Shown here: piece by piece, positions 1,419 through 43,699 of the stretch
Layout of the letters: each line of letters opens with the position of its first letter
Position numbering within the stretch: the stretch's first letter is position 1
Virus record (IMG/VR): IMGVR_UViG_2851982317_000004
DNA from: a virus
Lineage: Duplodnaviria; Heunggongvirae; Uroviricota; Caudoviricetes
Length of the DNA stretch: 43,699 nt
Direction: 5' to 3' (one strand)
The notes under the pieces: model-generated
What the model was told of the DNA's origin: nothing
Seen by the model: only the letters and a program-made list of their open reading frames with translations
Database searches by the model: none
Program-made: the position numbers and the translations under genes

Positions 1419-3890
1419 TTAAAAATCAGCCTGATTCGGAATCAGTTTTTGCCAGATAGCTGAAACGTATTTTGCCTGGTAACGGGCGTCATCAAGTGCA
1501 TTATGGCGCTCACCTTCGAATGGAATAGCCGTTCTGGCATCGAAGTCTATGGCTTTCCCCAGCTCAACGATTGTGCGTACATCGCGATCGTTGTAGTAAC
1601 GCCACGGGCAGGGGATCCCCTGCCGTTCGTATGAACGGCGCAAAATCGTGTTGTCGAAGTTGGCTCCATTTCCCCAGACCTGAACAAAAAATTCACCGGA
1701 GTTTTCGTCGATAAATTCCCGCAATTGTAACAGTGCATCATCTAACGGGATTTCATCGGTCATAATGGCAGATTGCGCTTCGCGTGATTGCTTAAGCCAC
1801 CATTTAATGGTGTCCCGATCAATGACTCCGCCAGCAGTTTCCAGATCGATAGTCTTACTAAATTCCGGTCCCATATCTCCGGTTTGCGGATCGAAAAATA
1901 TTGCACCTATTGAGATAATCGGGGCATCAGGATTTTTTCCCATGGTTTCAAGGTCGATCATTAGATGGTCACACGTCCTACTGGCGGATGTGATTTCGTG
2001 ATGACCGTTCACCTTAATTGAGTGATCTGCCGTCTCGCCAGTTTCATTATCGCTATTGTGATGCTGATTGCCGCCAGTGTTCTTCTTGTTTGGATGTTCA
2101 GCGCCTTCCATTTCCTCCGGATCATCTTCCTGAACTTCAACCTGATACTCTTCATCGAATGTTTCCTGGTATGTTGCGTCGCCCATCACCGCGCCACAAT
2201 CAGGGCAGTTGCCGCCGCCGGTCTGACCGCAGGCGGTGCAGATCTTTTCCGGTTCCTGTTGCACTACTGGTTCAGGTTGTTTCGTTTCTTGCTCGTTTTG
2301 TAACGCATTTGGGCTGTTTTGTTCCGCTTTCTGGCCGTTCTGTTCCGTTTCTTGCTGGTTCTGGTTCACAGAATCGCGGGTTTCCATCCCCTTCACCCAT
2401 TTCGGATCATTCGGATCGCTAATTCCTACAACAAATTCACCACGTGATACTGCAAGCAGTTCATCGGCGTCAGGCTGGCTGATATTGGCTGCCTGCATAA
2501 TGTTGTTTACTTCGTCAGCGGTAACTTTTACCGGCCCTGGTTGTGCGGTCGTGTCAGATGCACCAGTATTTTGTTGTGAACCTGAGTATGTACTGTTTTT
2601 GCGGACGAAATATTCTTCTTTCGTGATTTCAGTAGCCCCGGCAGCCAGTGCCTTATCCAGACCAGAAAGTTTGTTTGCGCGACCGTATTTTTCACCATCC
2701 TTGTCGGTGAAGAGGAAGTAGAACGGCCCCTCACGCTCTACAGATGGTTCGACTTCCACTTTGCATTCGGTTTTTTCGTTGTCCGGAATTGCCGTTTCCA
2801 CTGCATCAGTTTCTGGTACTGGCGACGAGAGAGTATCAGTTGCGATCTGATTTGTTCCTTCATCTTCAAACACGCCCTTTGTAGTCAGGTATTCAGTAAT
2901 GTATTTGTTCAGTGCCACAGGGTCTTTGTGAATGTCGATCGGACGCTCACGGACAAGGCCAAAAATAGTCTGGCGGTCGTAGCGAAGGGCATCAGGCTGT
3001 TTGCGCATTGATGCTGAGATACGCTTCCAGTCTTCGCGGTCGTTGTTGATAACTTCATTTTTTGCCCAGCGATGGATGCTGCCGTCAATGTTTCCGGCAT
3101 CAATGTCACCAGGCCACAGAGCGTAGGCCAGTTCATCATCCAGTGTTTTCCATGTCTGCTTATATTCGCGACGAATGACTGCAGTGACAGGGGGGATATT
3201 TTCTGCTGAGTTTTCAGTGTGCTGTCGGTTGACTCTGGCGCGGGCGAGATCAACAGCAGACGTGTATTTTCCGGTTTCCTTGCGTTCACCTTCGCGACGT
3301 TTTTTCCAGATGCGCATCTCTGCCTGAATTTCGGGCCATTTAGCTCCAGGCTTACATTTATGCTTAACCCACCCGATGGCATGCAACTTAAGTTCTGGAT
3401 ACATGGCGTTAACTTCTGGCATTTTCATCAACGCTTCAACGATATGTCCGTCGAATGTTGCCATGTCTTCCTGCAACAGTTCCTGTGCACTAATCACCAT
3501 ATCAACGGTGATGTTTTCACATGTGTCGAACTTAACCATGACAGCGTTCTGTACTTCAGGGGCCAGCTTGTCAAAAGTGACGTTCATCGGATCTGATTCA
3601 GTCTCAACCGGGACAAAGGAAGCTGACTCCTCATCCCAGCGGTTTTCCTGCATATATTCAGCATCCCAGGAATCGAGGGCAGGGCGGGGTATACCGGGTT
3701 TATCCTCGCAAACAAGAAATTTATAAGCGCAGTCCTGAGCAGCCGGATATTGCTCCAGGAATTGCCAGGTAAATTTGGCACGGGCGCGGCGTTCGTCGCC
3801 AGCTTCAATGGCAGTGGCTACAGCGACTGCACCTTCTTCCTTTATTGCCTGTTCGTCCGGAATAGCGGCGCAAATAAAGACTTTACTCAT
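1419..3890 (-). CDS. Large exonuclease: RecE-like central region plus C-terminal DEDDh 3'-5' exonuclease domain
   Basis: 823 aa. C-terminal ~180 aa carry DnaQ-like motifs (MIDLETMG, WGNGANFD, HNALDDARY). The segment LLAVSRGEFVVGISDPNDPKWVKG resembles, from memory, a conserved stretch of Rac RecE. Sits directly upstream of xis/int. Confidence 0.75.
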   Translation of the reverse strand: MSKVFICAAIPDEQAIKEEGAVAVATAIEAGDERRARAKFTWQFLEQYPAAQDCAYKFLVCEDKPGIPRPALDSWDAEYMQENRWDEESASFVPVETESDPMNVTFDKLAPEVQNAVMVKFDTCENITVDMVISAQELLQEDMATFDGHIVEALMKMPEVNAMYPELKLHAIGWVKHKCKPGAKWPEIQAEMRIWKKRREGERKETGKYTSAVDLARARVNRQHTENSAENIPPVTAVIRREYKQTWKTLDDELAYALWPGDIDAGNIDGSIHRWAKNEVINNDREDWKRISASMRKQPDALRYDRQTIFGLVRERPIDIHKDPVALNKYITEYLTTKGVFEDEGTNQIATDTLSSPVPETDAVETAIPDNEKTECKVEVEPSVEREGPFYFLFTDKDGEKYGRANKLSGLDKALAAGATEITKEEYFVRKNSTYSGSQQNTGASDTTAQPGPVKVTADEVNNIMQAANISQPDADELLAVSRGEFVVGISDPNDPKWVKGMETRDSVNQNQQETEQNGQKAEQNSPNALQNEQETKQPEPVVQQEPEKICTACGQTGGGNCPDCGAVMGDATYQETFDEEYQVEVQEDDPEEMEGAEHPNKKNTGGNQHHNSDNETGETADHSIKVNGHHEITSASRTCDHLMIDLETMGKNPDAPIISIGAIFFDPQTGDMGPEFSKTIDLETAGGVIDRDTIKWWLKQSREAQSAIMTDEIPLDDALLQLREFIDENSGEFFVQVWGNGANFDNTILRRSYERQGIPCPWRYYNDRDVRTIVELGKAIDFDARTAIPFEGERHNALDDARYQAKYVSAIWQKLIPNQADF

Positions 3891-3969
3891 GTTGTTTTAA
3901 CCTCATTACAGATTTAAGGGTGAACAAATCCCTGCCATTGCTGGCATATAAAATGAAACCGGATATTAA

Positions 3970-4227
3970 TTACGGCGCTGTTTTAAGTCCTGCCGGGATT
4001 TCGTTATTATCCATGTGAATAACTTTATCGACCGGATAGCAGTTACCGGGAATTTTTTGTTCTGCTGCGGCAGCTATGCATTCTTTCATTGAACCGTAAA
4101 TGTTAATAACCATGTCAACAGGCTCGCCAGTATTAAGAAAAACAGTCAGAGTGAGGGCAATAGCAGTATTCATTGCCAGTATCCTTTTTGCATCGGGCGT
4201 AAACGGGCCAGCATTGAAAGAATGCAT
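3970..4227 (-). CDS. Small hypothetical protein with hydrophobic N-terminal segment
   Basis: ORF in the leftward early operon. An internal ATG near 4173 forms an ATGA overlap with the stop of the upstream ORF, suggesting the real product is ~67 aa (MNTAIALTLTVF...). Confidence 0.4.
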   Translation of the reverse strand: MHSFNAGPFTPDAKRILAMNTAIALTLTVFLNTGEPVDMVINIYGSMKECIAAAAEQKIPGNCYPVDKVIHMDNNEIPAGLKTAP

Positions 4228-4454
4228 ATTTTATTTAATAGCTCCCGTTCGTATTTTCTCTTATTAATGGCATCTTCAGTAAATACAGGGTTACTGATTC
4301 TGACACCAATTTCAAAACAACCTTCAGACGTATTGACGTTTGGTAATAACGTTTCCATTATCGCGTCCTCAACAATGAATTTTGTGATGCGGCGCCTGGT
4401 GCCTCCAGGTGACGTTAACCAGTTAACAATTAACGCCGGATACAGAGAACCCAC
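4170..4454 (-). CDS. Hypothetical early protein
   Basis: Track ORF starts with GTG; an internal ATG near 4358 has a GAGGA Shine-Dalgarno 6-7 nt upstream (METLLPNV..., ~62 aa). AT-rich. Confidence 0.35.
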   Translation of the reverse strand: MGSLYPALIVNWLTSPGGTRRRITKFIVEDAIMETLLPNVNTSEGCFEIGVRISNPVFTEDAINKRKYERELLNKICILSMLARLRPMQKGYWQ

Positions 4455-4540
4455 CCATAAGAACCAATACGGAAGTCAACTGGCCTTTTTAACTGTTCCG
4501 CGTGCGCTGAGCCGCATTCACCGCATCACAAAATTCACTT

Positions 4541-4587
4541 TAAAAAGGGCGGGTATCACAAGGGAAAACAAAAAACGGATACCCGCC
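4541..4587 (-). terminator. Candidate intrinsic terminator for leftward transcription
   Basis: Perfect 10-bp inverted repeat GGCGGGTATC / GATACCCGCC (about 4548-4557 and 4578-4587) followed on the minus strand by CTTTTTA; the loop is long (20 nt), which lowers confidence. Confidence 0.4.
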
Positions 4588-4927
4588 AAAAGGTAATCAG
4601 CATGGGTTGTTGCAGCGGAGTTGTCACTTAAGCGTATGGTCAACCTGACAACCCGGTGCTCCACAGGGGAGGGAGAATAGTACCCCTGCCATACTTACCG
4701 CCGCGCCATTTCGCGGATTGCCACAACCGGAAGCGTACGGTCGAATTAAATTTAACGACAAGCCTCATAGGTGAAGGCCTTCGCCGTACGCTTTCGTGTT
4801 ATGCCCTGACTTTTCAGGGATATATCCTTTCAGTAAACTGTCAGTGCCGGATGCTCACCCGTGTCCGGCGCACGCACTCCACCTCACCCGTGGAGAACTC
4901 CTTAATTACCAACCCTCAGGAGGGTGA

Positions 4928-5161
4928 ATGTTAAAATCAACTCTTATTGCTAAATGCCTTTATCAAAATCGCATGGTAAGCAGCATTTCAATAGGCGAGT
5001 CTGCAGTTAAAAGTATTTTCGAAGAGTACTTTTCCGGGCATGATTTTAATAAATGGAATACTAAATTACCGCCAGCAGTTTCAACGCGTATTCTGAAAGC
5101 AACTGAAAGAGCAAGTACAATTCGCGTTAACTATTTCATTAAAGATTTGTGGGATCTTTGA
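4928..5161 (+). CDS. Hypothetical 77 aa protein, rightward, opposite to the early-left operon
   Basis: ORF preceded by AGGAGG 5 nt upstream of the ATG; AT-rich coding sequence; 3' end overlaps the convergent 135 aa ORF by about 23 nt. Confidence 0.5.
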   Translation: MLKSTLIAKCLYQNRMVSSISIGESAVKSIFEEYFSGHDFNKWNTKLPPAVSTRILKATERASTIRVNYFIKDLWDL

Positions 5162-5546
5162 TATCCACAGAGCCTAAAGTATGTGCATATGGATGTGCTA
5201 TTGTGCGCCCCTGTAAATTTGCATCGTTTTCTAAATCTTTTGATTTCAACAGAACATCAGCAAGACTCTGAATCATGCAGAGATAATCAAAAGCAGTTGC
5301 CGTTTCTGTTCTGATTGCTGAAATAACATGACCATTCAGGCAAACAGAAATTACCCGTTCATCAATATCGTTTTCCTGTTTTTGATTATCAGAACCATAT
5401 AGCCCTGAAAAAGCATTGCGCACATTACGAACCATATTATCGATGGTTTCTTTTTTGGTGTATGCCGGGTCAATTTTCACCAGACTATCACCGAGTGTCG
5501 TTGCAGCAATTATCTGGATTTCTTTTGGTAAATCTTTAAATTCCAT
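5139..5546 (-). CDS. Hypothetical 135 aa protein
   Basis: ORF with GAGG 7 nt upstream of the ATG; begins right after the stop of the upstream ORF (5569); AT-rich; contains RTIAHPYAH, which only loosely resembles a HEPN-type R-x-H motif. Confidence 0.55.
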   Translation of the reverse strand: MEFKDLPKEIQIIAATTLGDSLVKIDPAYTKKETIDNMVRNVRNAFSGLYGSDNQKQENDIDERVISVCLNGHVISAIRTETATAFDYLCMIQSLADVLLKSKDLENDANLQGRTIAHPYAHTLGSVDIKDPTNL

Positions 5547-5568
5547 TATTAGCCTCGTTGGTTAGCCA

Positions 5569-5787
5569 TTAACGTGGGTATGTAATCATTCTGGCAATGC
5601 TTAATGCCGCTGCTTTTTCCAGATTGGTGATATCCTGCTCCAGAGCGGACAGATTTTCAGCTTGCTTAGCCCTGGCTTCATTGGCCCATTTCAGGTCCTG
5701 CGCAGCCTTAATTTTCTGGTGCATCCACTCATAAAGTTCATCATCGGTATAGTCTGGCGCGATGATGACGGGTTCTCGTTTCTGCAT
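5569..5787 (-). CDS. Hypothetical 72 aa early protein
   Basis: ORF in the leftward operon between the repressor region and the exonuclease; helical, charged composition. Confidence 0.5.
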   Translation of the reverse strand: MQKREPVIIAPDYTDDELYEWMHQKIKAAQDLKWANEARAKQAENLSALEQDITNLEKAAALSIARMITYPR

Positions 5788-5817
5788 ACTGATTCCTCGC
5801 GGTGCTGCTTCGCTTAT

Positions 5818-5945
5818 CAGCCGTTAGATTTTGCCGAGCTGGAAAGCGCCTGTATAAACTCACTGAAGCTGAGAGCTTCTTCGCCTTTGGCAAGGCCTTC
5901 GAAGTATTCTTCGTAAGCCTTTTCCATGATTGTGTCGAAATCCAT
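5818..5945 (-). CDS. Small hypothetical protein, ~42 aa (below track cutoff)
   Basis: Hand-translated minus-strand ORF MDFDTIMEKAYEEYFEGLAKGEEALSFSEFIQALSSSAKSNG; its ATG sits 2 nt after the stop of the upstream ORF (5947). Confidence 0.35.
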
Positions 5946-5946
5946 A

Positions 5947-6183
5947 TCACTCACCTGAGTTTCTTTCCAGCCAGCGACGGGCACCATTTTCGGTTTTAAA
6001 CGTTTTGCTTTTGGTATACGTCATCGCGGTGAACGTACCGTCCTGGTTGGGGAACACGCCACATACCAGAGATTCGTTGTTGCCAAGATCGATAGTATCC
6101 ATGTTGACCTCATTTCCCCTTAACGCCGGGGTAGCGGAACAAAAACCTGCTGCATAGTTATTAAAGTTGAACCCTGCCGTCAT
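5947..6183 (-). CDS. Hypothetical 78 aa protein, first gene of the leftward early operon
   Basis: ORF immediately downstream (leftward) of the candidate PL; not Arg-rich, so not an N-like antiterminator. Confidence 0.5.
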   Translation of the reverse strand: MTAGFNFNNYAAGFCSATPALRGNEVNMDTIDLGNNESLVCGVFPNQDGTFTAMTYTKSKTFKTENGARRWLERNSGE

Positions 6184-6283
6184 GTTCTTACGCCTCGGGC
6201 TGGCTACTTAACCCCTGACCACTGCCTAGTAACTCGAAGTATTGCCCTGCGTTCTGTGGGGCGGGGTGGGTTGATATGCAATA

Positions 6284-6312
6284 AATCTAAAAGTATTTAG
6301 TTTTATAGTCAA
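6284..6312 (-). promoter_or_regulatory. Candidate leftward early promoter (PL-like) overlapping operator repeats
   Basis: Minus strand reads TTGACT, 17 nt, TAGATT; AATCTAAA-type repeats overlap (about 6285 and 6318). Confidence 0.4.
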
Positions 6313-6332
6313 GTAAAAATCTAAATTAATTT

Positions 6333-6357
6333 AAAAAAAGGTCGGCATAACCGACCT
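6333..6357 (-). terminator. Intrinsic terminator downstream of the repressor gene
   Basis: 7-bp stem AGGTCGG / CCGACCT with 5-nt loop, followed on the minus strand by a T6 run. Confidence 0.5.
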
Positions 6358-6379
6358 TAAGTTCAAGAACATGGCAGGG

Positions 6380-7027
6380 TTATAGGTTGAACTGTACACC
6401 CTTTGCTACGGCAACAATTTTACACTCTGGCGTAAGCAAGGATGATTGATAGCGCGGATTGAGAGGGCTTAAATACACAAGTTTTCCATCAATAACTAAT
6501 TTTTTTATAGTCATAGACGGTTCATTTGTAAGAGGATCTGGAACTATTACAGCGACGATACTGCCATTTTTATAACTTTCTCCTGGTCTTAGGATCACAG
6601 TGGCACCAACTGGGATACTTGGCGACCCTGAGGGGTTATGCATAGTGTCATCAGGCATTGAAACGGCAAAATCACCTTCCACTACATCAAAGAATGTGGT
6701 GATCCTATCGACATTTCCCATTGTTTTCTCTCCTTCTAAGATTAGGAAAGAAATCGCGTCACCCCACGAAAAGTAGGGGATCTTGGTGCCTGGATTGCTC
6801 TGCACAAAAGATAGTTCAGGAGACGATACTCCATACAGGAGATAGGACTCAGTAGTTCCTAATGCTTGGGCTAACTTACTTAGAGCTTTGCTGCCGGGTT
6901 CGTTTAGATCTTTCTCCCAGTACCCTATAGTAACCCCAGTCACGCCTGAAAGCTTACCCAGTTCTACTTGGGTGAGTCCCTTATCTTTTCTGAGTTTCTT
7001 AAGCCTGATGCCAAGGCTTTCCATCAT
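6380..7027 (-). CDS. Phage repressor, cI/LexA-like (HTH plus S24 peptidase-like C-terminal domain)
   Basis: 215 aa; N-terminal HTH-like LTQVELGKLSGVTGVTIGYWEK; C-terminal half has the length and Ser...Lys spacing of an autocleaving S24 domain; divergent from the Cro-like gene with operator repeats on both sides. Confidence 0.85.
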   Translation of the reverse strand: MMESLGIRLKKLRKDKGLTQVELGKLSGVTGVTIGYWEKDLNEPGSKALSKLAQALGTTESYLLYGVSSPELSFVQSNPGTKIPYFSWGDAISFLILEGEKTMGNVDRITTFFDVVEGDFAVSMPDDTMHNPSGSPSIPVGATVILRPGESYKNGSIVAVIVPDPLTNEPSMTIKKLVIDGKLVYLSPLNPRYQSSLLTPECKIVAVAKGVQFNL

Positions 7028-7066
7028 TTTCTCCCGCGAGTTGAATATAAATTATTTTAGATTGCA

Positions 7067-7095
7067 TTGACCTAAAAAAAATTATCCTGTAATCT
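7067..7095 (+). promoter_or_regulatory. Candidate rightward early promoter (PR-like) with overlapping operator palindrome
   Basis: TTGACC, 17 nt, TAATCT about 30 nt upstream of the Cro-like ATG; the -10 overlaps the palindrome AATCTAAAAATACTTAGATT. Confidence 0.5.
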
Positions 7096-7123
7096 AAAAA
7101 TACTTAGATTTCAGGAGGGCGAA

Positions 7124-7351
7124 ATGCGAGTTGATGAACTTGTTCAGTTTTTTGGCTCTGTTCAGAGGGTCGCTGATTTTTATGGGATAACCCGCGAAGC
7201 TATTTACATGTGGCGTAAGCGCCCCGGTGAAATAGTTCCGAAAGGGAGAGCTGCGGAAGCTGCTGCATACTCCAAGGGAAAATTATCTTTGAACCCAGAG
7301 CTTTACAAAAAGAAGGATACCACTCAGAGCGAAAGGAAGAGTGATTCATGA
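7124..7351 (+). CDS. Cro-like small DNA-binding regulator
   Basis: 75 aa ORF divergent from the repressor, directly downstream of the PR-like promoter; HTH-like segment FYGITREAIYMWRKR. Confidence 0.65.
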   Translation: MRVDELVQFFGSVQRVADFYGITREAIYMWRKRPGEIVPKGRAAEAAAYSKGKLSLNPELYKKKDTTQSERKSDS

Positions 7352-34832: not shown

Positions 34833-37800
34833 ATGGGTAAAGGCAGCAGTAAGGGGCATACCCCGCGCGAAGCGAAGGACAACCTGAAGTCCACGCAGCT
34901 GCTGAGTGTGATCGATGCCATCAGTGAAGGGCCGGTTGAAGGTCCGGTGGATGGATTAAAAAGCGTGCTGCTGAACAGTACGCCGGTGCTGGACAATGAG
35001 GGGAATACCAACATCTCCGGCGTCACGGTGGTGTTCCGGGCAGGTGAGCAGGAGCAGTCACCGCCGGAGGGGTTTGAATCCTCCGGCTCCGAGACGGTGC
35101 TGGGTACGGAAGTGAAATATGACACGCCGATCACCCGGACCATCACGTCGGCAAACATCGACCGTCTGCGCTTTACCTTCGGTGTACAGGCACTGGTGGA
35201 AACCACCTCAAAGGGAGACAGGAATCCGTCGGAAGTCCGCCTGCTGGTTCAGATACAGCGTAACGGTGGCTGGGTGACAGAAAAAGACATCACCATTAAG
35301 GGCAAAACCACGTCGCAGTATCTGGCCTCAGTGGTGGTGGATAACCTGCCGCCGCGCCCGTTTAATATCCGGATGCGCAGGATGACGCCGGACAGCACCA
35401 CAGACCAGCTGCAGAACAAAACGCTCTGGTCGTCATACACCGAAATTATCGATGTGAAACAGTGCTACCCGAACACGGCACTGGTCGGCGTGCAGGTGGA
35501 CTCGGAGCAGTTCGGCAGCCAGCAGGTGAGCCGTAATTATCATCTGCGCGGGCGTATTCTGCAGGTGCCGTCGAATTATAACCCGCAGACGCGGCAATAC
35601 AGCGGTATCTGGGACGGAACGTTTAAACCGGCATACAGCAACAACATGGCCTGGTGTCTGTGGGATATGCTGACCCACCCGCGCTACGGCATGGGGAAAC
35701 GTCTTGGTGCGGCAGATGTGGATAAATGGGCGCTGTATGTTATCGGCCACTACTGCGACCAGTCGGTGCCGGACGGCTTTGGCAGCACGGAGCCGCGCAT
35801 CACCTGTAATGCCTGGCTGACCACACAGCGCAAGGCGTGGGATGTGCTCAGCGATTTCTGCTCGGCGATGCGCTGTATGCCGGTATGGAACGGGCAGACG
35901 CTGACGTTCGTGCAGGACCGGCCATCGGATAAGGTGTGGACCTATAACCGCAGTAATGTGGTGATGCCGGATGATGGCGCGCCGTTCCGCTACAGCTTCA
36001 GCGCCCTGAAGGACCGCCATAATGCCGTTGAGGTGAACTGGATTGACCCGAATAACGGCTGGGAGACGGCGACAGAGCTTGTGGAGGACACGCAGGCCAT
36101 TGCCCGTTACGGTCGTAACGTCACGAAGATGGATGCCTTTGGCTGTACCAGCCGGGGGCAGGCACACCGCGCCGGGCTGTGGCTGATTAAAACGGAACTG
36201 CTGGAAACGCAGACCGTGGATTTCAGCGTGGGTGCTGAAGGGCTTCGCCATGTACCGGGCGATGTCATTGAAATCTGTGATGATGACTATGCCGGTATCA
36301 GCATCGGCGGGCGCGTGCTGGCGGTGAACAGCCAGACCCGGACGCTGACGCTCGACCGTGAAATCACGCTGCCATCCTCCGGTACCACGCTGATAAGCCT
36401 GGTTGACGGAAGTGGCAATCCGGTCAGCGTGGAGGTCCAGTCCGTCACCGACGGCGTGAAGGTAAAAGTGAGCCGTGTTCCTGACGGCGTTGCCGGATAC
36501 AGCGTGTGGGGGCTGAAGCTGCCGACGCTGCGCCAGCGCCTGTTCCGCTGCGTGAGTATCCGTGAGAACGACGACGGCACGTATGCCATCACCGCCGTGC
36601 AGCATGTACCGGAAAAAGAAGCCATCGTGGATAACGGGGCGCACTTTGACGGCGACCAGAGCGGCACGGTGAATGGTGTCACGCCGCCAGCAGTGCAGCA
36701 CCTGACTGCCGAAGTCACCGCAGACAGCGGGGAGTATCAGGTACTGGCCCGCTGGGATACGCCGAAGGTGGTGAAGGGCGTGAGCTTCCTGCTCCGTCTG
36801 ACCGTAACAGCGGATGACGGCAGTGAGCGGCTGGTCAGCACGGCCCGGACGACGGAAACCACATACCGCTTCACGCAACTGGCGCTGGGGCGGTACACGC
36901 TGACAGTCCGGGCGGTAAATGCGTGGGGACAGCAGGGCGATCCGGCATCGGTATCGTTCCGGATTGCCGCACCGGTAGCACCGTCGCGGATTGAGCTGAC
37001 GCCGGGGTATTTTCAGATAACCGCCACGCCGCATCTTGCGGTTTATGATCCGACGGTACAGTTTGAGTTCTGGTTCTCGGAAAAGCGGATTACCGATATC
37101 AGGCAGGTTGAAACCAGCGCGCGTTATCTTGGTACGGGGCTGTACTGGATAGCTGCCAGTATCAATATCAAACCGGGCCATGATTATTACTTTTATATCC
37201 GCAGTGTGAACACCGTTGGCAAATCGGCATTCGTGGAGGCTGTTGGTCAGCCGAGTGATGACGCATCCGGCTATCTGGATTTTTTCAAAGGCGAGATAGG
37301 GAAAACCCATCTGGCTCAGGAGCTGTGGACGCAGATTGATAACGGTCAGCTTGCGCCTGACCTGGCTGAAATCAGGACATCCATTACGGATGTCAGCAAT
37401 GAAATCACACAGACCGTCAATAAGAAACTGGAAGACCAGAGTGCAGCGATCCAGCAGATACAGAAGGTTCAGGTTGATACAAATAATAATCTGAACAGCA
37501 TGTGGGCTGTGAAGCTGCAGCAGATGCAGGACGGACGCCTTTATATTGCGGGTATCGGTGCCGGTATTGAGAACACCCCCGACGGCATGCAGAGTCAGGT
37601 GCTGCTGGCGGCAGACAGGATTGCGATGATTAATCCTGCAAATGGCAACACAAAACCGATGTTTGTTGGTCAGGGTGATCAGATATTCATGAACGACGTG
37701 TTCCTGAAACGCCTGACGGCCCCCACCATTACCAGCGGCGGTAATCCTCCGGCATTTTCCCTGACACCGGACGGGCGGCTGACGGCGAAAAATGCCGATA

Positions 37801-38093
37801 TCAGCGGTAACGTGAATGCGAACTCCGGGACGCTCAACAACGTCACGATTAACGAGAACTGTCGGGTTCTGGGAAAATTGTCCGCCAACCAGATTGAAGG
37901 CGATCTCGTTAAAACAGTGGGCAAAGCTTTCCCCGGGACTCCCGTGCACCGGAACGGTGGCCATCAGGGACCATCACCGTCAGGGTTTATGACGATCAGC
38001 CGTTTGACCGGCAGATTGTTATTCCGGCGGTGGCATTCAGCGGCGCTAAACATGAGCGGGAGAATAACGATATTTATTCGTCATGCCGCCTGA
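34833..38093 (+). CDS. J: Host specificity / tip attachment protein J, frame lost near the 3' end
   Basis: 1086 aa ORF with lambda J-like N-terminus; the last ~55 codons read as nonsense, and the conserved J C-terminus continues in a different frame (ORF 38030..38311). Confidence 0.85.
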
Positions 38094-38311
38094 TAGTACG
38101 GAAAAACGGTGCTGAAATTTATAACCGTACCGCGCTGGATAATACGCTGATTTACAGTGGTGTTATTGATATGCCAGCTGGTCGCGGCCACATGACGCTG
38201 GAGTTTTCGGTGTCAGCATGGCTGGTAAATAACTGGTATCCCACAGCAAGTATCAGCGATTTGCTGGTTGTGGTGATGAAGAAAGCCACCGCAGGCATCA
38301 GTATCAGCTGA
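38030..38311 (+). CDS. J: C-terminal segment of J in a shifted frame (pseudogene fragment or sequencing error)
   Basis: The frame reads ...[92 protein letters not shown], matching the lambda J C-terminal receptor-binding end as I recall it. Confidence 0.7.
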
Positions 38312-38378: not shown

Positions 38379-38978
38379 ATGCGTAAAGTTTGTTCAGCCA
38401 TTTTGTCCGCAGCCATCTGTCTGGCCGTATCCGGTGCACCTGCATGGGCGTCTGAGCAGCAGGCCACACTGAGCGCAGGGTATCTTCATGCCCGTACGAA
38501 CGCTCCCGGCAGCGATAATCTGAACGGGATTAACGTGAAATACCGTTATGAGTTTACGGACACGCTGGGGCTGATTACGTCATTCAGTTATGCCAACGCT
38601 GAAGATGAGCAAAAAACGCATTACAGCGATACCCGCTGGCATGAAGATTCCGTGCGTAACCGCTGGTTCAGCGTGATGGCGGGGCCGTCTGTGCGCGTGA
38701 ATGAATGGTTCAGCGCGTATGCGATGGCGGGTATGGCTTACAGCCGTGTTTCGACTTTCTCCGGAGATTATATCCGCGTAACTGACAACAAGGGGAAAAC
38801 GCACGATGTGCTGACCGGAAGTGATGACGGTCGCCACAGCAACACGTCTCTGGCGTGGGGAGCTGGCGTGCAGTTTAACCCGACCGAATCCGTGGTTATT
38901 GATGTCGCTTATGAAGGCTCCGGCAGTGGTGACTGGCGCACTGACGGTTTCATCGTGGGTGTCGGTTATAAATTCTGA
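38379..38978 (+). CDS. lom: Lom-like outer membrane protein (Ail/Lom/PagC family)
   Basis: 199 aa with N-terminal signal peptide (…[10 protein letters not shown]), beta-barrel-like alternating pattern and C-terminal YKF; lambda lom position between J and stf. Confidence 0.85.
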
Positions 38979-39004
38979 TTAGCCAGGTAACACAGTGTTA
39001 TGAC

Positions 39005-39033
39005 AGCCCGCCGGTTCAGGCGGGCTTTTTTGT
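39005..39033 (+). terminator. Intrinsic terminator after lom
   Basis: Stem AGCCCGCC / GGCGGGCT with 6-nt loop followed by T6. Confidence 0.6.
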
Positions 39034-39036
39034 GGG

Positions 39037-42000
39037 GTGAATATGGCAGTAAAGATTTCAGGTGTACTGAAAGACGGCACAGGAAAACCGGTACAGAACT
39101 GCACAATCCAGCTGAAAGCAAAACGTAACAGTACCACTGTGGTGGTGAACACGCTGGCCTCAGAAAATCCGGATGAAGCCGGGCGTTACAGTATGGACGT
39201 TGAGTACGGTCAGTACAGCGTTATTCTGTTGGTGGAGGGATTCCCGCCGTCACATGCCGGGACCATCACCGTGTATGAAGATTCTCAACCCGGTACGCTG
39301 AATGATTTTCTCGGTGCCATGACGGAGGATGATACCCGTCCGGAGGCACTGCGACGTTTTGAACTGATGGTGGAAGAGGTGGCGCGTAACGCGTCCGCGG
39401 TGGCACAGAACACAGCAGCCGCGAAGAAGTCAGCCAGCAATGCCAGCACATCAGCCCGTGAGGCGGCAACCCATGCGACTGATGCTGCAGGCTCAGCACG
39501 CGCAGCCAGCACGTCAGCCGGACAGGCCGCGTCGTCGGCTCAGTCAGCGTCTTCCAGCGCAGGAACGGCATCAGCAAAGGCCACTGAAGCATCAAAAAGT
39601 GCTGCCGCTGCAGAGTCCTCAAAAAGCGCGGCGGCTACCAGTGCCGGTGCGGCGAAAACGTCAGAAACGAATGCGGCAGCGTCACAACAATCTGCAGCCA
39701 CTTCTGCATCCGCCGCGACCACAAAGGCGTCAGAAGCTGCCACCTCAGCCCGGGATGCGGCGGCCTCAAAAGAGGCAGCGAAATCATCAGAAACGAACGC
39801 ATCATCAAGCGCCAGTAGTGCCGCTTCCTCGGCAACGGCGGCAGGAAATTCCGCGAAGGCGGCAAAGACGTCCGAGACGAACGCCAGGTCTTCTGAAACG
39901 GCAGCGGAACAGAGTGCCTCCGCAGCAGCAGGCTCAAAAACAGCGGCTGCGTCGTCTGCCAGTGCAGCGTCAACAAGTGCCGGGCAGGCCTCAGCCAGTG
40001 CCACTGCCGCCGGAAAATCGGCAGAAAGCGCTGCATCGTCCGCTTCAACAGCTACAACGAAGGCTGGCGAAGCCGCTGAACAGGCCAGCGCAGCAGCGAG
40101 GTCTGCATCCGCAGCGAAGACATCCGAAACGAATGCGAAAGCGTCGGAAACCAGTGCAGAATCCTCAAAAACGGCAGCCGCATCGTCAGCCAGTTCGGCG
40201 GCGTCATCGGCATCATCGGCGTCTGCTTCAAAAGATGAGGCGACCAGACAGGCGTCAGCAGCGAAGGGCAGCGCCACGACGGCATCCACGAAGGCGACAG
40301 AGGCAGCTGGCAGTGCGACGGCGGCAGCACAGAGCAAAAGTACAGCAGAATCCGCGGCAACGCGCGCCGAGACAGCAGCAAAACGGGCAGAGGATATTGC
40401 ATCCGCCGTGGCGCTGGAGGATGCGAGCACGACGAAAAAGGGGATAGTACAGCTCAGCAGTGCAACAAACAGCACCAGTGAAAAGCTGGCGGCAACGCCA
40501 AAGGCAGTTAAAACTGTTAAAGATAGTTCAGTTCAAAAAACTGGCGACACAATGGGAGGGCAGTTAAAAATCAGCACGATAAATGCTCTTCGAATATTCA
40601 ACCAAGCCTTTGGCCTTATTTTTAGGCGTTCCGAAGATCATCTTCATCTTATTCCGACTAATGAAGGAGAGGGGGAAAATGGAGACATCGGTTCATTAAG
40701 ACCATTCTCTATAAACTTAAGATCAGGGTTGGTGTCCATCGGTAATGGACTAAAAGTTGGTGGTAGTGTTACTGGTAATTTGACCGGAAACGCAGATACT
40801 GCGACCAAGATCAAGACAGCACGTAAGATTGGGGGCGTGGCATTTGATGGATCGGCAGATATCAACTTGCCTGGAGTCAACGCTACCGGTAATCAAAACA
40901 CTACAGGTAATGCTGCGACCGCCACGAAACTTCAGGCAGCCAGAACGATTAACGGTGTGTCATTTGATGGTAGTGCAAATATCACATTGACCCCTTCAAA
41001 TATTGGGGCATTGGCATTAACTGGAGGGACTCTTTCAGGTGGTTTAACTGCTGCTGGTGAGGTTATTTCAAGGTCAGCAAATGGTCTGCGTATTGCCTAT
41101 GGCAACTATGGATTCTTTATCCGAAATGATGGATCAAACACATATTTTATGTTGACAGATTCGGGTAACAGTCTTGGTACGTACAATAGCTTAAGGCCGT
41201 TTATAATTAGTAACCATACTGGCAATGTTACAATTGCAACTAAATTAAACGCGAGTGGTGGTATCACTGGATCTTTATCGGGTAATGCAAGCACAGCAAC
41301 CAAATTGCAAACTGCAAGGACAATTAACGGCGTAAAATTTGACGGCTCGGCAAATATTGAAGCGTTTCCGCCAGGTGTTCCGCTGCCGTGGCCATCAGAT
41401 ACACCACCTGCAGGTTATGCAATCATGCAGGGGCAGACGTTTGATAAGGCAGCATATCCGAAACTGGCTATTGCCTATCCTTCAGGTGTTATTCCAGATA
41501 TGCGCGGCTGGACAATCAAGGGCAAACCCGCCAGTGGCCGGGCCGTATTGTCTCAGGAACAGGACGGCATTAAATCGCACACCCACAGCGCCAGCGCATC
41601 CAGTACGGATTTGGGGACGAAAACCACATCGTCGTTTGATTACGGCACTAAATCCACGAATAACACCGGGGCGCATACGCACAGTCTGAGTGGCTCTACG
41701 GGGTCTGCCGGTGTTCATACTCATGGTAATGGTATTCGTTGGCCAGGAGGCGGCGGTTCTGCGTTAGCATTTTATGATGGCGGTGGGTTCACTTATGTCC
41801 AGAATTCACAGTATCAAGTAAGCCCGGAGACTTCTTCCTATAGATCGTATTATCAACGTATTCAGACACAGTCAGCAGGTGCTCATACCCACTCGCTGTC
41901 TGGTACTGCAGCAAGTTCTGGCGCACATGCACATACTGTAGGTATTGGTGCGCATACGCACTCCGTTGCGATTGGTTCACATGGACACACCATCACCGTT

Positions 42001-42069
42001 AACGCTGCGGGTAACGCGGAAAACACCGTCAAAAACATCGCATTTAACTATATTGTGAGGCTTGCATAA
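39037..42069 (+). CDS. stf: Side tail fibre protein Stf (mosaic); likely true start ATG at 39043
   Basis: N-terminus [26 protein letters not shown] matches lambda Stf as I recall it; long Ala/Ser-rich repeat region; three tandem ~45 aa repeats (TGN..TATK..TAR.I.GV.FDGSA.I); C-terminal His-rich GAHTHS repeats ending [11 protein letters not shown]. Confidence 0.9.
39380..40450 (+). repeat. Degenerate in-frame tandem repeats encoding the Ala/Ser/Thr-rich Stf shaft
   Basis: Repeated SA..S.TNA..S..SA-type units in the Stf translation; the GC-rich periodic DNA also creates long spurious ORFs on other frames. Confidence 0.6.
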
Positions 42070-42653
42070 TGGCATTCAGAATGAGTGAACAAGCACGGAC
42101 CATAAAAATTTATAATCTGCTGGCCGGAACTAATGAATTTATTGGTGAAGGTGACGCATATATTCCGCCTCATACAGGTCTGCCAGCAAACAGTACCGAT
42201 ATTGCACCACCAGATATTCCTGCTGGCTTTGTGGCTGTTTTCAACAGTGATGAGGCATCGTGGCATCTCGTTGAAGACCATCGGGGTAAAACGGTTTATG
42301 ACGTAGCGTCAGGGGACGAGTTATTTATTTCTGAACTCGGTCCGTTACCGGAAAATGTTACCTGGTTATCGCCGGAAGGGGAGTTTCAGAAGTGGAACGG
42401 CACAGCCTGGGTGAAGGATACGGAAGCAGAAAAACTGTTCCGGATCCGGGAGGCGGAAGAAACAAAAAACAACCTGATGCAGGTAGCCAGTGAGCATATT
42501 GCGCCGCTTCAGGATGCTGCAGATCTGGAAATTGCAACGGAGGAAGAAACCTCATTGCTGGAAGCCTGGAAAAAGTATCGGGTGTTGCTGAACCGTGTTG
42601 ATACATCAACTGCACCTGATATTGAGTGGCCTACGAACCCTGTCAGGGAGTAA
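42069..42653 (+). CDS. tfa: Tail fibre assembly protein Tfa
   Basis: 194 aa; ATG overlaps the stf stop (TAATG); colinear with lambda Tfa as I recall it (MAFRMSEQ..., C-terminal IAPLQDA...IEWP). Confidence 0.85.
42492..42653 (+). repeat. Direct repeat copy 1 (tfa 3' end)
   Basis: About 160 bp highly similar to 43541..43699 (the reading frame is preserved in both copies). Confidence 0.7.
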
Positions 42654-42667
42654 TCATTGGGATTATG

Positions 42668-42700
42668 CCGCAGCACGTCTTAAGCAAGAACGTGCTGCGG
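42668..42700. terminator. Perfect 11-bp hairpin between convergent tfa and the methyltransferase gene
   Basis: CCGCAGCACGT / ACGTGCTGCGG with 11-nt loop; a T6 run follows about 10 nt downstream on the plus strand. Confidence 0.4.
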
Positions 42701-42707
42701 TTGGATG

Positions 42708-43376
42708 CTATTTTTTCCCTGAAGCGGAAAACATTACTACAGTACCTTGAACCTTGGTTTTAACATTCTCGAAATGCTCTGAGAGTATATGTGTTAAGCC
42801 TTCTTCGGAATCTTTTGTGTTTGAAAAGATGCCTTTCTGATTGTAAATGCGCATCAGTTTTTGACCGAAGCTATTGTGCACAACTCCATCGCCAAGAATT
42901 GTGGCTCCGTATAGAGTTCCATCGTCAGTTAAGGCCTGCGCCGCATTGCGTATTACACAGCTTTTTGTAGATATATTTCCAGGCAGGCAGTGAAGAAGGT
43001 AAAACATGGAAATGGAATCAAATTGACCATGTAACGCCGCGGGATAAGGTTCAAAAACATCATGGCTAATTTTATGTTTAATTTTTGATTCCCCAGCCCT
43101 TGTCGATGCCGCGTTCAGGCTAGCTTCGTTCAAATCCATTAAAGATATCAGACTACTCTCAGGTACGTGAGTAAGGTAAAACCCAGTTCCAACACCAATA
43201 TCCAGATGGTTGTTACCTACATGTTCCAGAAAGTGTGGAAGAAGGTGTTCCTTTGTAGGACATCCCCATGCAAGCCGATTTGATACTCCCAAAACCCACC
43301 AGTCATAAAGCTTTAGGGTAAGTGGTGTGTAAATTTTAGCCCCATCATCTGTGTTTTTTTTCATTGATTTCACCAT
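42708..43376 (-). CDS. Class I SAM-dependent methyltransferase (cargo gene)
   Basis: 222 aa with motif I-like LDIGVGTGFY; AT-rich relative to the flanking tail genes; start may be the second ATG (43364), which has a GGTGA Shine-Dalgarno-like site. Confidence 0.65.
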   Translation of the reverse strand: MVKSMKKNTDDGAKIYTPLTLKLYDWWVLGVSNRLAWGCPTKEHLLPHFLEHVGNNHLDIGVGTGFYLTHVPESSLISLMDLNEASLNAASTRAGESKIKHKISHDVFEPYPAALHGQFDSISMFYLLHCLPGNISTKSCVIRNAAQALTDDGTLYGATILGDGVVHNSFGQKLMRIYNQKGIFSNTKDSEEGLTHILSEHFENVKTKVQGTVVMFSASGKK

Positions 43377-43432
43377 GTTATAGTTTTATTTGTGAATTAA
43401 ATCAATTATGGCGATGAATTACAAGGGGTTAA

Positions 43433-43699
43433 ATGCTGCCGCAGCATAGCGATATTGAAATAGCCTGGTATGCTTCGATACAGCAGGAGCCGAATGGCTG
43501 GAAGACCGTCACCACACAGTTCTACATCCAGGAATTCAGTGAGTATATTGCGCCACTGCAGGATGCTGTAGATCTGGAAATCGCAACGGAGGAAGAAAGA
43601 TCGTTGCTGGAGGCATGGAATAAATATCGGGTATTGTTGAATCGTGTTGATACATCAACTGCACCTGATATTGAGTGGCCGACTTCACCTGCAGAGTAA
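43433..43699 (+). CDS. Tfa-like C-terminal fragment (second, divergent tfa remnant)
   Basis: 88 aa ORF whose last ~52 aa ([52 protein letters not shown]) closely match the Tfa C-terminus; the upstream part is unrelated; the stop coincides with the window end. Confidence 0.55.
43541..43699 (+). repeat. Direct repeat copy 2 (tfa-like 3' end)
   Basis: Matches 42492..42653 with scattered substitutions; the two copies bracket the methyltransferase gene. Confidence 0.7.

Follow-up and report, generated by a model that had tools for sequence, protein, structure and literature searches.

Evidence for a recombined AT-rich central cassette in the side tail fibre gene of a lambdoid prophage

The gene stf, found near the end of a window of 43,699 nucleotides (the whole stretch of DNA analysed), very probably encodes an ordinary mosaic, modular side tail fibre of a lambdoid prophage. 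A recombination origin of its AT-rich central block is strongly supported, because sharp breakpoints shared by several unrelated alleles, a shift in composition at synonymous sites and a discordant divergence along the gene all point to it. The block itself resembles shaft domains and appears to be a swapped-in part of the shaft, not the receptor-binding tip; its role would be structural, setting the length and geometry of the shaft. Module swapping is a well-known route of phage fibre evolution, and the result leaves our understanding of tail-fibre evolution unchanged.

According to the open reading frames and Pfam matches, the genes J, lom, stf and tfa follow each other in this order at the right end of the tail operon, and they are annotated likewise in E. 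coli strains 203740 and E2528-C1. J is frameshifted within the window. The stf frame was called by program as a single open reading frame of 1010 residues, from a GTG at 39037 to 42069 on the plus strand; the RefSeq start is given in Table 1 together with the other features. Its product is 100% identical to WP_072005394.1, carried by the same two strains, which are both ETEC and in which the gene is annotated. Identity to one known allele across the whole gene, named in the preliminary description as an argument against mosaicism, was literally found in these two genomes, but it leaves the mosaicism untouched: it means that the allele is already in databases, not that it is non-mosaic.

The gene tfa lies directly downstream, its start codon overlapping the stop codon of stf. 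It is 98.8-99.1% identical across the alleles of the same architecture, and its product is the folding chaperone. Further downstream, there are only a SAM methyltransferase gene and a tfa remnant, which is marked by a direct repeat of 158 nt (42477-42634 and 43526-43683, 87% identical) and may be the scar of an earlier replacement of the fibre module.

Table 1 Features of the stf region, with positions in the window and the evidence for each
Feature	Position	Strand	Evidence
stf, side tail fibre gene	39043..42069	+	RefSeq ATG at 39043
N-terminal tail-attachment domain, lambda Stf type	39043..39378	+	PF08400; PDB 9e7m_Ta
Ala/Ser-rich shaft, 49 heptads	39379..40416	+	autocorrelation, DNA motif spacing, GC by codon position
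alpha/beta fibre repeat, gp34/gp12 type	40417..40512	+	aligns to Mu S residues 93-150
AT-rich central cassette, putative shaft part, aa 493-783, 873 bp	40513..41385	+	breakpoints, GC3, population distribution
knob 1, aa 502-575	40540..40761	+	internal alignment to knob 2
TATK motif copies 1 and 2, aa 584-609 and 624-649	40786..40983	+	40 aa apart
knob 2, beta-prism, gp34 P4 / Mu S type, aa 668-742	41038..41262	+	PF21446, E 2.7e-27
TATK motif copy 3, aa 749-774	41281..41358	+	internal alignment
collar domain	41386..41580	+	PF07484; 2XGF match
needle, T4 gp37 type	41581..42066	+	2XGF, E 1.2e-79
tip subdomain, aa 892-946	41710..41874	+	aligns to T4 gp37 929-958
tfa, tail fibre assembly chaperone	42069..42653	+	PF02413, E 1.9e-44
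tfa remnant, 3' part of older tfa	43433..43699	+	direct repeat; RefSeq partial tfa pseudogene

The N-terminus is lambda-like, as had been recognised from the sequence at the outset. PF08400 covers residues 3-136 (E 2.4e-71, 238.5 bits versus a cut-off of 26.6), PDB chain 9e7m_Ta is matched over residues 3-96 (E 4.5e-52), and lambda orf-401 is 72.5% identical over residues 3-406, which take in the N-terminus and Ala/Ser shaft sequence. This shaft, first described as a long degenerate repeat, is indeed rich in Ala, Ser and Thr (72-80% in windows of 60 codons starting at residues 121-391). However, it is not a tandem repeat at the DNA level; instead, residues 115-460 form 49 unbroken, strict heptads with the pattern A-[A/S]-x-S-A-x-x. 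The autocorrelation reaches z-scores of 7.4-10 at every multiple of 7 from 7 and 14 up to 63, and copies of the corresponding DNA motif are spaced in multiples of 21 nt. Tandem Repeats Finder returned nothing but a trivial 9-nt array in 38900-42700, so that the repeats of the shaft, like those of the motif described below, exist at the protein level only. We suggest that the shaft forms a trimeric alpha-helical coiled coil. Its high GC content (0.60-0.64) is due to its amino-acid composition, with a GC2 of about 0.8 and a GC3 of about 0.52. The shaft is followed by an alpha/beta repeat of a type described in gp34 and gp12 (PMC5537660), which terminates in the left crossover patch GCTGGCGGCAACGCCAAAGGCAGT (40485-40508).

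The AT-richer block that comes next is real, even if its boundaries had been placed at about 40480-41350 and are those given in Table 1. The GC content of the cassette is 0.432 overall (0.38-0.48 in windows), well below that of the shaft, and its GC3 is 0.337, compared to values of 0.517 for the shaft and 0.69 for J. The three tandem repeats of about 45 residues reported for this block proved to be something else, namely three copies of a 26-residue motif, GNAxTATKxxxARxIxGVxFDGSAxI, spaced by 40 and then 125 residues and interleaved with two knob domains of about 75 residues each. The true duplicated unit is a knob plus a motif (residues 502-614 versus 668-781), and many third-codon positions vary among the three copies of the motif. 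Knob 1 is a diverged copy of knob 2 (alignment score of 95, versus 29 +/- 5 for shuffled sequences); its only resemblance is this internal one to knob 2, with no direct match to a solved structure. Knob 2 strongly matches Mu S 268-350 (5YVQ, about 80% identical; E 9e-26 for this stretch, 1.3e-32 for the match), is 75% identical to P2 H 435-502, and also matches the T4 gp34 structures 4UXE (E 1.8e-17), 5NXF and 5NXH. Copies 1 and 2 of the TATK motif align to the beta-helix region of T4 gp34, which suggests a beta-helix fold in which they would be triple beta-helix segments. A monomer model of residues 460-800 obtained with AlphaFold2 from an alignment of 42 sequences was poor (mean pLDDT 60.4, pTM 0.36), and the fold assignments therefore rest on homology between sequences. 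Five predicted strands occur at model residues 223-274 with a pLDDT of 57-85, in a monomer model whose overall pLDDT is only 60, and Foldseek again placed Mu S and T4 gp34 first; the model lends weak support.

The breakpoints of the cassette are sharp. On the left side, homology to Rac stfR, mEp332, phage 204576, lambda and Cyrano ends in all cases at 40509-40512, and on the right side homology to the first three resumes at 41386, where the collar opens with the conserved patch CCGTGGCCATCAGATAC (41386-41402). The left anchor is a single patch of 24 nt (LAATPKAV) and the right one has 17 nt (PWPSDT), and at both junctions the nucleotides are exactly identical over a stretch on which homologous exchange could act. 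At the site of the 873-bp cassette, Rac stfR, mEp332 and phage 204576 carry one of 1260 bp. In phage 204576, 40513-41385 is unrelated, 41386-41580 is 82% identical and 41581-42653 is 99.8% identical; the 35 mismatches in 41386-41580 are followed by 2 over the next 1073 nt, and the right crossover relative to this phage is truly at about 41540-41580.

Divergence along the gene is equally uneven. Two alleles of the same architecture, from prophages at different chromosomal sites, are 99-100% identical to the present stf over the cassette, the C-terminus and tfa, and 84-88% and 90-96% identical over the N-terminus and the shaft, respectively. For the cassette block alone, identity reaches 99.8-99.9% in prophages that share only 84-96% over the N-terminus and shaft. 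Breakpoints, GC3 and divergence together bear out the initial suggestion that the block was acquired by recombination. We propose that the cassette was installed by homologous recombination, with the LAATPKAV and PWPSDT patches, whose nucleotide sequence is conserved across many otherwise unrelated fibre genes, as anchors, and that it replaced a longer homologous cassette of 420 residues with about 45% protein identity. A precedent for this mechanism is the exchange between lambda and stfR and tfa of Rac, which proceeds across diverged homology at about 2e-6 and depends on Red-beta or RecA (PMC3945230).

Two other origins of this pattern were considered. The GC contrast might be a mere by-product of the Ala/Ser-rich composition of the shaft, with no recombination at all, as the shaft GC of 0.62 is driven by its GC2 and its GC3 is ordinary. 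Nevertheless, GC3 still falls to 0.34 within the block, several alleles lose homology at the same nucleotides and divergence along the gene is discordant, which refutes this explanation and leaves it next to no probability. The cassette might also have been captured without homologous recombination, by an invertase of the Din family (Cin, Gin, Pin) that acted on a crossover site within the gene; such a route has been proposed for fibres of P1, P7, Mu, e14 and Rac. Invertase-driven exchange has been cited as the explanation of old fibre-gene transfers (PMC3945230), Rac has pinR adjoining tfaR, and the best P7 protein match to the cassette begins shortly after cixL, about 58 nt into Sv'. However, the region downstream of tfa holds no invertase gene, and the exact identity at both junctions fits homologous exchange. 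With one mismatch allowed, no crossover core of the AAACCNNGGTTT type was found at the 40512 or 41386 junction; the window contains three matches to this core, versus 1.5 expected by chance, and the one at 42749 falls inside the methyltransferase gene. No inverted repeats were found in 38900-43699. With no core site at the junctions and matches at chance level, the invertase route was rejected for both junctions, and we regard it as very improbable.

Beyond the right junction, the match to 2XGF spans the collar and the needle (residues 745-1010, versus gp37 785-1026), and PF03335 and PF07484 match the C-terminus. The His-rich character noticed earlier in this part corresponds to seven HxH motifs between residues 848 and 984 (at 848, 880, 894, 950, 964, 973 and 982, the first starting at position 41578). 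In T4 gp37, such motifs are the iron sites, of which seven are reported (PMC6957217). The His-lined needle probably binds iron. The receptor-contact tip of T4 gp37 was mapped experimentally to residues 929-958 (PMC6957217), and the subdomain that aligns with it here, with 18 inserted residues and few identities, is the probable receptor-contact region. We rejected the idea that it is the same tip as in T4, and hence has the same OmpC/LPS specificity, given these few identities and insertions. The tip is a separate and independently variable mini-cassette at 41700-41871, which shows no DNA homology to Rac or mEp332 and is common to phage 204576. This block occurs in 718 genomes and only 2 phage records, and no characterised phage was found with the tip subdomain. 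Host specificity would be set jointly by the tip mini-cassette and Tfa.

It had been suggested that the acquired block could have changed receptor specificity, and the block might itself bind a receptor or a glycan, for instance by lateral binding through its beta-prism knobs, thereby changing host range. In favour of this, no other part of the gene is exchanged as sharply as the cassette, which is near invariant in about 420 genomes, globular knobs stick out from the shaft in gp34 (PMC5537660), and some fibres have more than one binding domain (PMC11990801). On the other hand, the cassette is homologous to portions of the shaft in the T4 proximal half-fibre, P2 H and Mu S that lie upstream of the binding domains, and the contact residues of T4 gp37 align elsewhere, in the tip subdomain (PMC6957217). 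Moreover, the fibres of SSU5-like phage-plasmids carry the same block with a different distal end and continue for about 400-500 residues past it, which places the cassette in mid-fibre. A change of receptor specificity through the block is thus unsupported, and we consider a binding role for it unlikely; a swapped-in shaft part remains our preferred reading. Functional chimeras of lambda Stf have been engineered by fusion at R393 or S528, and it is their C-terminal part that retargets them (PMC11338833).

With an identity of at least 99%, the cassette occurs in 430 records, and it was found in 422 of 5,426 E. coli genomes, a count inflated by clonal sampling; in the two compared alleles, the gene upstream of it differs by 4-16%. 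Its nearest relative elsewhere, with 95-99% identity across 40473-41272, lies in the tail fibres of SSU5-like phage-plasmids, namely E. coli NZ_CP070135.1 and NZ_CP146657.1. In their tail gene, these plasmids share 97% identity with Cyrano and CMS-2020a and 74% with SSU5. The cassette belongs to a pool shared with these fibres, which is a candidate donor pool. Such similarity implies exchange between lambdoid prophages and SSU5-like phage-plasmids, the comparison comprising two examples that do not fix the direction of transfer. No close copy was found outside E. coli in a scan of one genome per species, where the best matches were in Kluyvera (40%), Salmonella (59%) and E. ruysiae (77%, partial) and where the TATK motif alone was widespread across phyla. 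A large protein search gave no new architecture, its hits being for the most part E. coli fragments no longer than 510 residues, and a literature search on mEp332 gave qPCR work only. We find it distinctly unlikely that the distal half, from the cassette through collar and tip to tfa (40513-42653), is a recently spreading host-range module, moving between integrated lambdoid prophages and extrachromosomal SSU5-like phage-plasmids via LAATPKAV, with a knob cassette that provides a second, lateral binding and alters the E. coli strains adsorbed.

That lambda, T4, P2, P1 and Mu share mosaic fibre genes has been known since the early 1990s (refs 71-74 of PMC3945230). The present gene provides natural fibre splice points to the nucleotide, the LAATPKAV and PWPSDT patches, both of which are candidate junctions for chimeric Stf in lambda-based delivery particles (PMC11338833), and documents the same shaft cassette in lambdoid prophages and SSU5-like phage-plasmids of E. 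coli.

Ur-lambda has side tail fibres made of Stf and Tfa (Hendrix & Duda 1992, as cited in PMC7291167). As in lambda, stf follows J and lom here and shows the PF08400 N-terminus and the LAATPKAV junction; the gp37-like C-terminus is 65% identical over residues 766-1010, and the nucleotide identity of tfa is 94%. Unlike the present gene, lambda has no counterpart of the 291-residue cassette, homology to it ending at 40511, and its tip subdomain differs; lambda Stf is reported to have 774 residues (PMC7291167), the present protein being about 235 residues longer. Rac StfR (b1372 of E. coli K-12), which is of the same type as the fibres of mEp332 and phage 204576, shares the overall plan, with lom, the N-terminus and the shaft 94-96% identical in DNA up to 40512 and homologous collar, needle and tfa, whereas the protein encoded by its longer middle cassette is only about 45% identical.

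SSU5-like phage-plasmid fibres share 90-97% identity over 39673-40272 of the shaft, which is contiguous there with the cassette (40473-41272), and 5-7 further TATK units of about 40 residues, mostly in tandem, lie distally. However, these fibres differ in the N-terminal attachment domain, and their C-terminal domain is unrelated and lacks the gp37-like needle. Cyrano has the shaft in common but a different cassette, and P7 Sv' and the CMS-2020a fibre show 65-70% protein identity to the cassette. Mu S, P2 H and P1/P7 S are fibres of phages with contractile tails or lie in invertible segments, whereas the present gene has neither an invertase nor an invertible segment. Finally, knob 2 and the beta-helix segments match the region around P4 of T4 gp34 (4UXE, 5NXF, 5NXH), and the collar and needle, the latter with its seven HxH motifs, are like those of T4 gp37 (2XGF), except for a tip loop that is 18 residues longer and dissimilar. 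The chaperone is Tfa, instead of gp38 or gp57A as in T4, and, unlike in T4, the gp34-like and gp37-like parts are fused in one siphovirus side-fibre polypeptide.

The side tail fibre gene stf is 100% identical in nucleotide sequence to that of E. coli strains 203740 and E2528-C1, for which RefSeq places the start at ATG 39043, and lies in the lambda order J-lom-stf-tfa at the right end of a prophage adjoining potB. Its features, with Pfam domains and sequence matches to solved structures, are listed in the table.

Features of stf and its surroundings (residues numbered from the GTG start at 39037)
Feature	Nucleotides	Strand	Residues	Description or match
J tail-tip gene	34833-38311			ORFs 34833..38093 and 38030..38311
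Deletion in J	37925-37935			1 nt, frameshift
Hairpin, lom/stf	39004-39032			GC-rich, with T run
stf	39037..42069	+		1010 aa, single ORF
Tail fibre N-terminal domain			3-136	PF08400
N-terminal structural match			3-96	94-residue tail fibre chain 9e7m, E 4.5e-52
Shaft	39379-40416		115-460	49 unbroken heptads A-[A/S]-x-S-A-x-x
Spurious ORF	39440..40447			335 aa, another frame
Spurious ORF	39540..40475	-		311 aa
Helix-containing repeat			463-492	aligned to repeat of Mu S
Left junction	40485-40508			GCTGGCGGCAACGCCAAAGGCAGT, 24 nt, encodes LAATPKAV
Central block (cassette)	40513-41385		493-783	873 bp
Knob 1			502-575	
gp34-like region			559-755	T4 gp34 C-terminal shaft (4UXE, 5NXF, 5NXH), E 4.8e-18 to 1.5e-14
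26-aa motif, three copies			584-609, 624-649, 749-774	GNAxTATKxxxARxIxGVxFDGSAxI
Gp34_trimer			622-724	PF21446
Knob 2			668-742	
Mu S-like region			672-752	Mu S 268-350 (5YVQ), ~80% identity
gp37-like region			745-1010	T4 gp37 receptor-binding tip (2XGF), E 1.2e-79
Collar			780-827	PF07484
Phage fibre repeat				PF03335
Right junction	41386-41402			CCGTGGCCATCAGATAC, encodes PWPSDT
Needle	41581-42066			
HxH motifs, seven			848 to 984	His-rich C-terminus
Tip mini-block	41700-41871		892-946	
tfa	3' of stf			Tfa chaperone, PF02413
Hairpin, tfa/methyltransferase	42670-42698			GC-rich, with T run
Methyltransferase gene	42708-43376	-		class I SAM-dependent
Second tfa, 3' remnant	43433-43699	+		final 158 nt 87% identical to 42477-42634

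The GC contrast proposed in the preliminary description is borne out by the GC profile (0.60-0.64 in the shaft, 0.38-0.48 in the central block). The shaft value is due to second codon positions, where Ala, Ser and Thr codons raise GC2 to ~0.8, and its GC3 (0.52) is unremarkable, whereas the block is AT-rich at synonymous sites (GC3 0.337, against 0.69 in J and 0.59 in lom). The shaft is repetitive as described, but at the protein level only: TRF found no DNA tandem repeat in it, residue autocorrelation is significant at all multiples of 7 (z = 7.4-10) and at no other offset, and copies of its DNA motif are spaced by multiples of 21 nt. We infer that the shaft forms a trimeric coiled coil whose core residues are small. 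The heptads are perfectly in phase, and their biased codons give rise to long spurious ORFs, akin to the 'orf206b' that is annotated opposite lambda orf-401. The His-rich C-terminus was confirmed. The three tandem repeats of about 45 aa proposed for the block proved to be three copies of a 26-aa motif, of which the first two alone lie side by side, with a period of 40 aa, and the third starts 125 aa after the second. These motifs are interleaved with two knob domains of ~75 aa, so the true duplicated unit is a knob plus motif (aa 502-614 versus 668-781, score 200; knob to knob 95, versus 29 +/- 5 in shuffled sequence).

The proposal that the block was acquired by recombination is strongly supported by this GC3 shift, by sharp breakpoints common to several alleles, and by unequal divergence along the gene. 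In pairwise blastn, Rac stfR of K-12 and phages mEp332 and 204576 are 94-96% identical from lom to 40512, lose homology there and regain it at 41386; in lambda and the phage-plasmid Cyrano, too, homology ends at 40511-40512. The left junction patch is identical in Rac, mEp332 and 204576, with two mismatches in Cyrano and three in lambda. Rac, mEp332 and 204576 carry an intervening cassette of 1260 bp instead of 873 bp, with ~45% protein identity to the one here and a GC3 also lowish (0.41). Relative to 204576, there are 35 mismatches in 41386-41580 versus 2 in the 1073 nt of 41581-42653, so the exchanged piece extends from 40513 to ~41560. The mini-block, which coincides with the tip subdomain, lacks homology to Rac or mEp332 and is shared with 204576. 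The fibre is thus mosaic at nested levels.

Two replicons from the plasmid collection (NZ_CP070135.1 and NZ_CP146657.1, ~108 kb and 198 kb) resemble phages Cyrano and CMS-2020a in their tail gene (97% identity) and Salmonella phage SSU5 less closely (74%). Their fibre gene matches both the shaft (39673-40272, 90-97%) and the cassette (40473-41272, 95-99%) in one continuous alignment. The cassette therefore circulates between the fibres of SSU5-like phage-plasmids and the stf genes of lambdoid prophages. The N-terminus and distal part of the phage-plasmid fibres are wholly unlike those here, and their distal part adds a further 5-7 TATK units of 40 aa, most of them in tandem. Cyrano has the same shaft and another cassette. 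The plasmid fibres, at 3642-7064 of the NZ_CP070135.1 locus (L089) and 3540-7304 of the NZ_CP146657.1 locus (L090), have runs of this ~40-aa unit whose number differs by two between the plasmids, which suggests that fibre length varies by unequal crossing-over. Composition (GC 43% in the cassette, 47% in the phage-plasmid locus, 52% in the window) would lean towards a non-lambdoid origin, with SSU5-like phage-plasmids as a candidate donor pool.

Among 5,426 complete E. coli genomes, 422 contain the cassette, and 430 records match it at 99% identity or more; the tip block is found in 718 genomes, so it also accompanies other cassettes. These counts carry a bias from clonal sampling. Two alleles of the same architecture, from prophages at other chromosomal sites, are 99-100% identical in cassette, C-terminus and tfa, 84-88% in the N-terminus and 90-96% in the shaft. 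The cassette is absent from isolated phages of the phage collection, where the best protein identities are 65-70% (SSU5-like phage CMS-2020a and P7 Sv'), and the tip is present in only two phage records, both prophage-derived. A scan of other species, with one genome for each, found no close copy of the cassette outside E. coli. Predicted fibre proteins of very distantly related bacteria, including Flavobacterium, Clostridia, Saccharibacteria and other candidate phyla (loci include L012, L016, L035 and L041), and of a Prochlorococcus phage share the TATK/FDGS motif with 40-80% local identity; the motif seems to be a fibre building block of very wide distribution.

The structural matches do not support the suggestion that the block changed receptor specificity. 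It matches shaft parts, namely the gp34 region forming a triple beta-helix with beta-prism domains between, which has a structural role (PMC5537660); the helix-containing repeat preceding it is also described for gp34 and gp12 (PMC5537660). In an AlphaFold monomer model of low confidence (pLDDT 60), knob 2 has five strands, and the top Foldseek hits are Mu S and gp34. In T4 gp37, the receptor contacts map to residues 929-958, and the needle has seven histidine-bound iron atoms (PMC6957217). The T4 tip aligns instead with aa 892-946, a segment 18 residues longer than in T4 and mostly dissimilar; the tip is unlike those of T4, lambda and Rac. In engineered lambda Stf chimeras, the N-terminal part accepts heterologous distal parts, which determine the target (PMC11338833). 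We conclude that the AT-rich block is probably a shaft cassette changing fibre length and geometry, and that specificity would be determined by the tip mini-cassette and Tfa.

The route with the best support is homologous recombination between short conserved patches: the cassette would be swapped by exchange at the patches encoding LAATPKAV on the left and PWPSDT on the right. De Paepe et al. measured lambda x Rac recombination in exactly the stf-tfa region, at ~2e-6, through 88-95% identical DNA and requiring Red-beta or RecA (PMC3945230). Capture by a Din-family invertase is hinted at by the homologous segment of P7, which begins just inside cixL, but the sequence here gives it no support: no invertase gene or inverted repeats were found, and the crossover core is absent from both cassette junctions.

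Among the neighbours, J is unbroken in strains 203740 and E2528-C1, with 3480 bp; its frameshift here, in a C run (CCCC versus CCCCC in 203740), is due either to a sequencing error in the homopolymer or to the prophage being defective, without the C-terminal receptor-binding part of J. The methyltransferase gene and tfa remnant, laid out identically in strain E-1246 and replaced after tfa by the Avs2 anti-phage gene in F5505-C1, look like a moron (an accessory gene dispensable for phage growth) plus the scar of an earlier fibre-module replacement. Of the two hairpins, the one that separates tfa from the convergently transcribed methyltransferase gene probably terminates transcription in both directions.

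The cassette, its exact junctions and the phage-plasmid link appear to be undescribed in the papers searchable here. Mosaicism of tail fibres is an old observation, and RefSeq already lists this very stf allele, with a generic name. The fibre is of the lambda Stf/Rac StfR type, a standard mosaic here joined to gp34-like and gp37-like modules.
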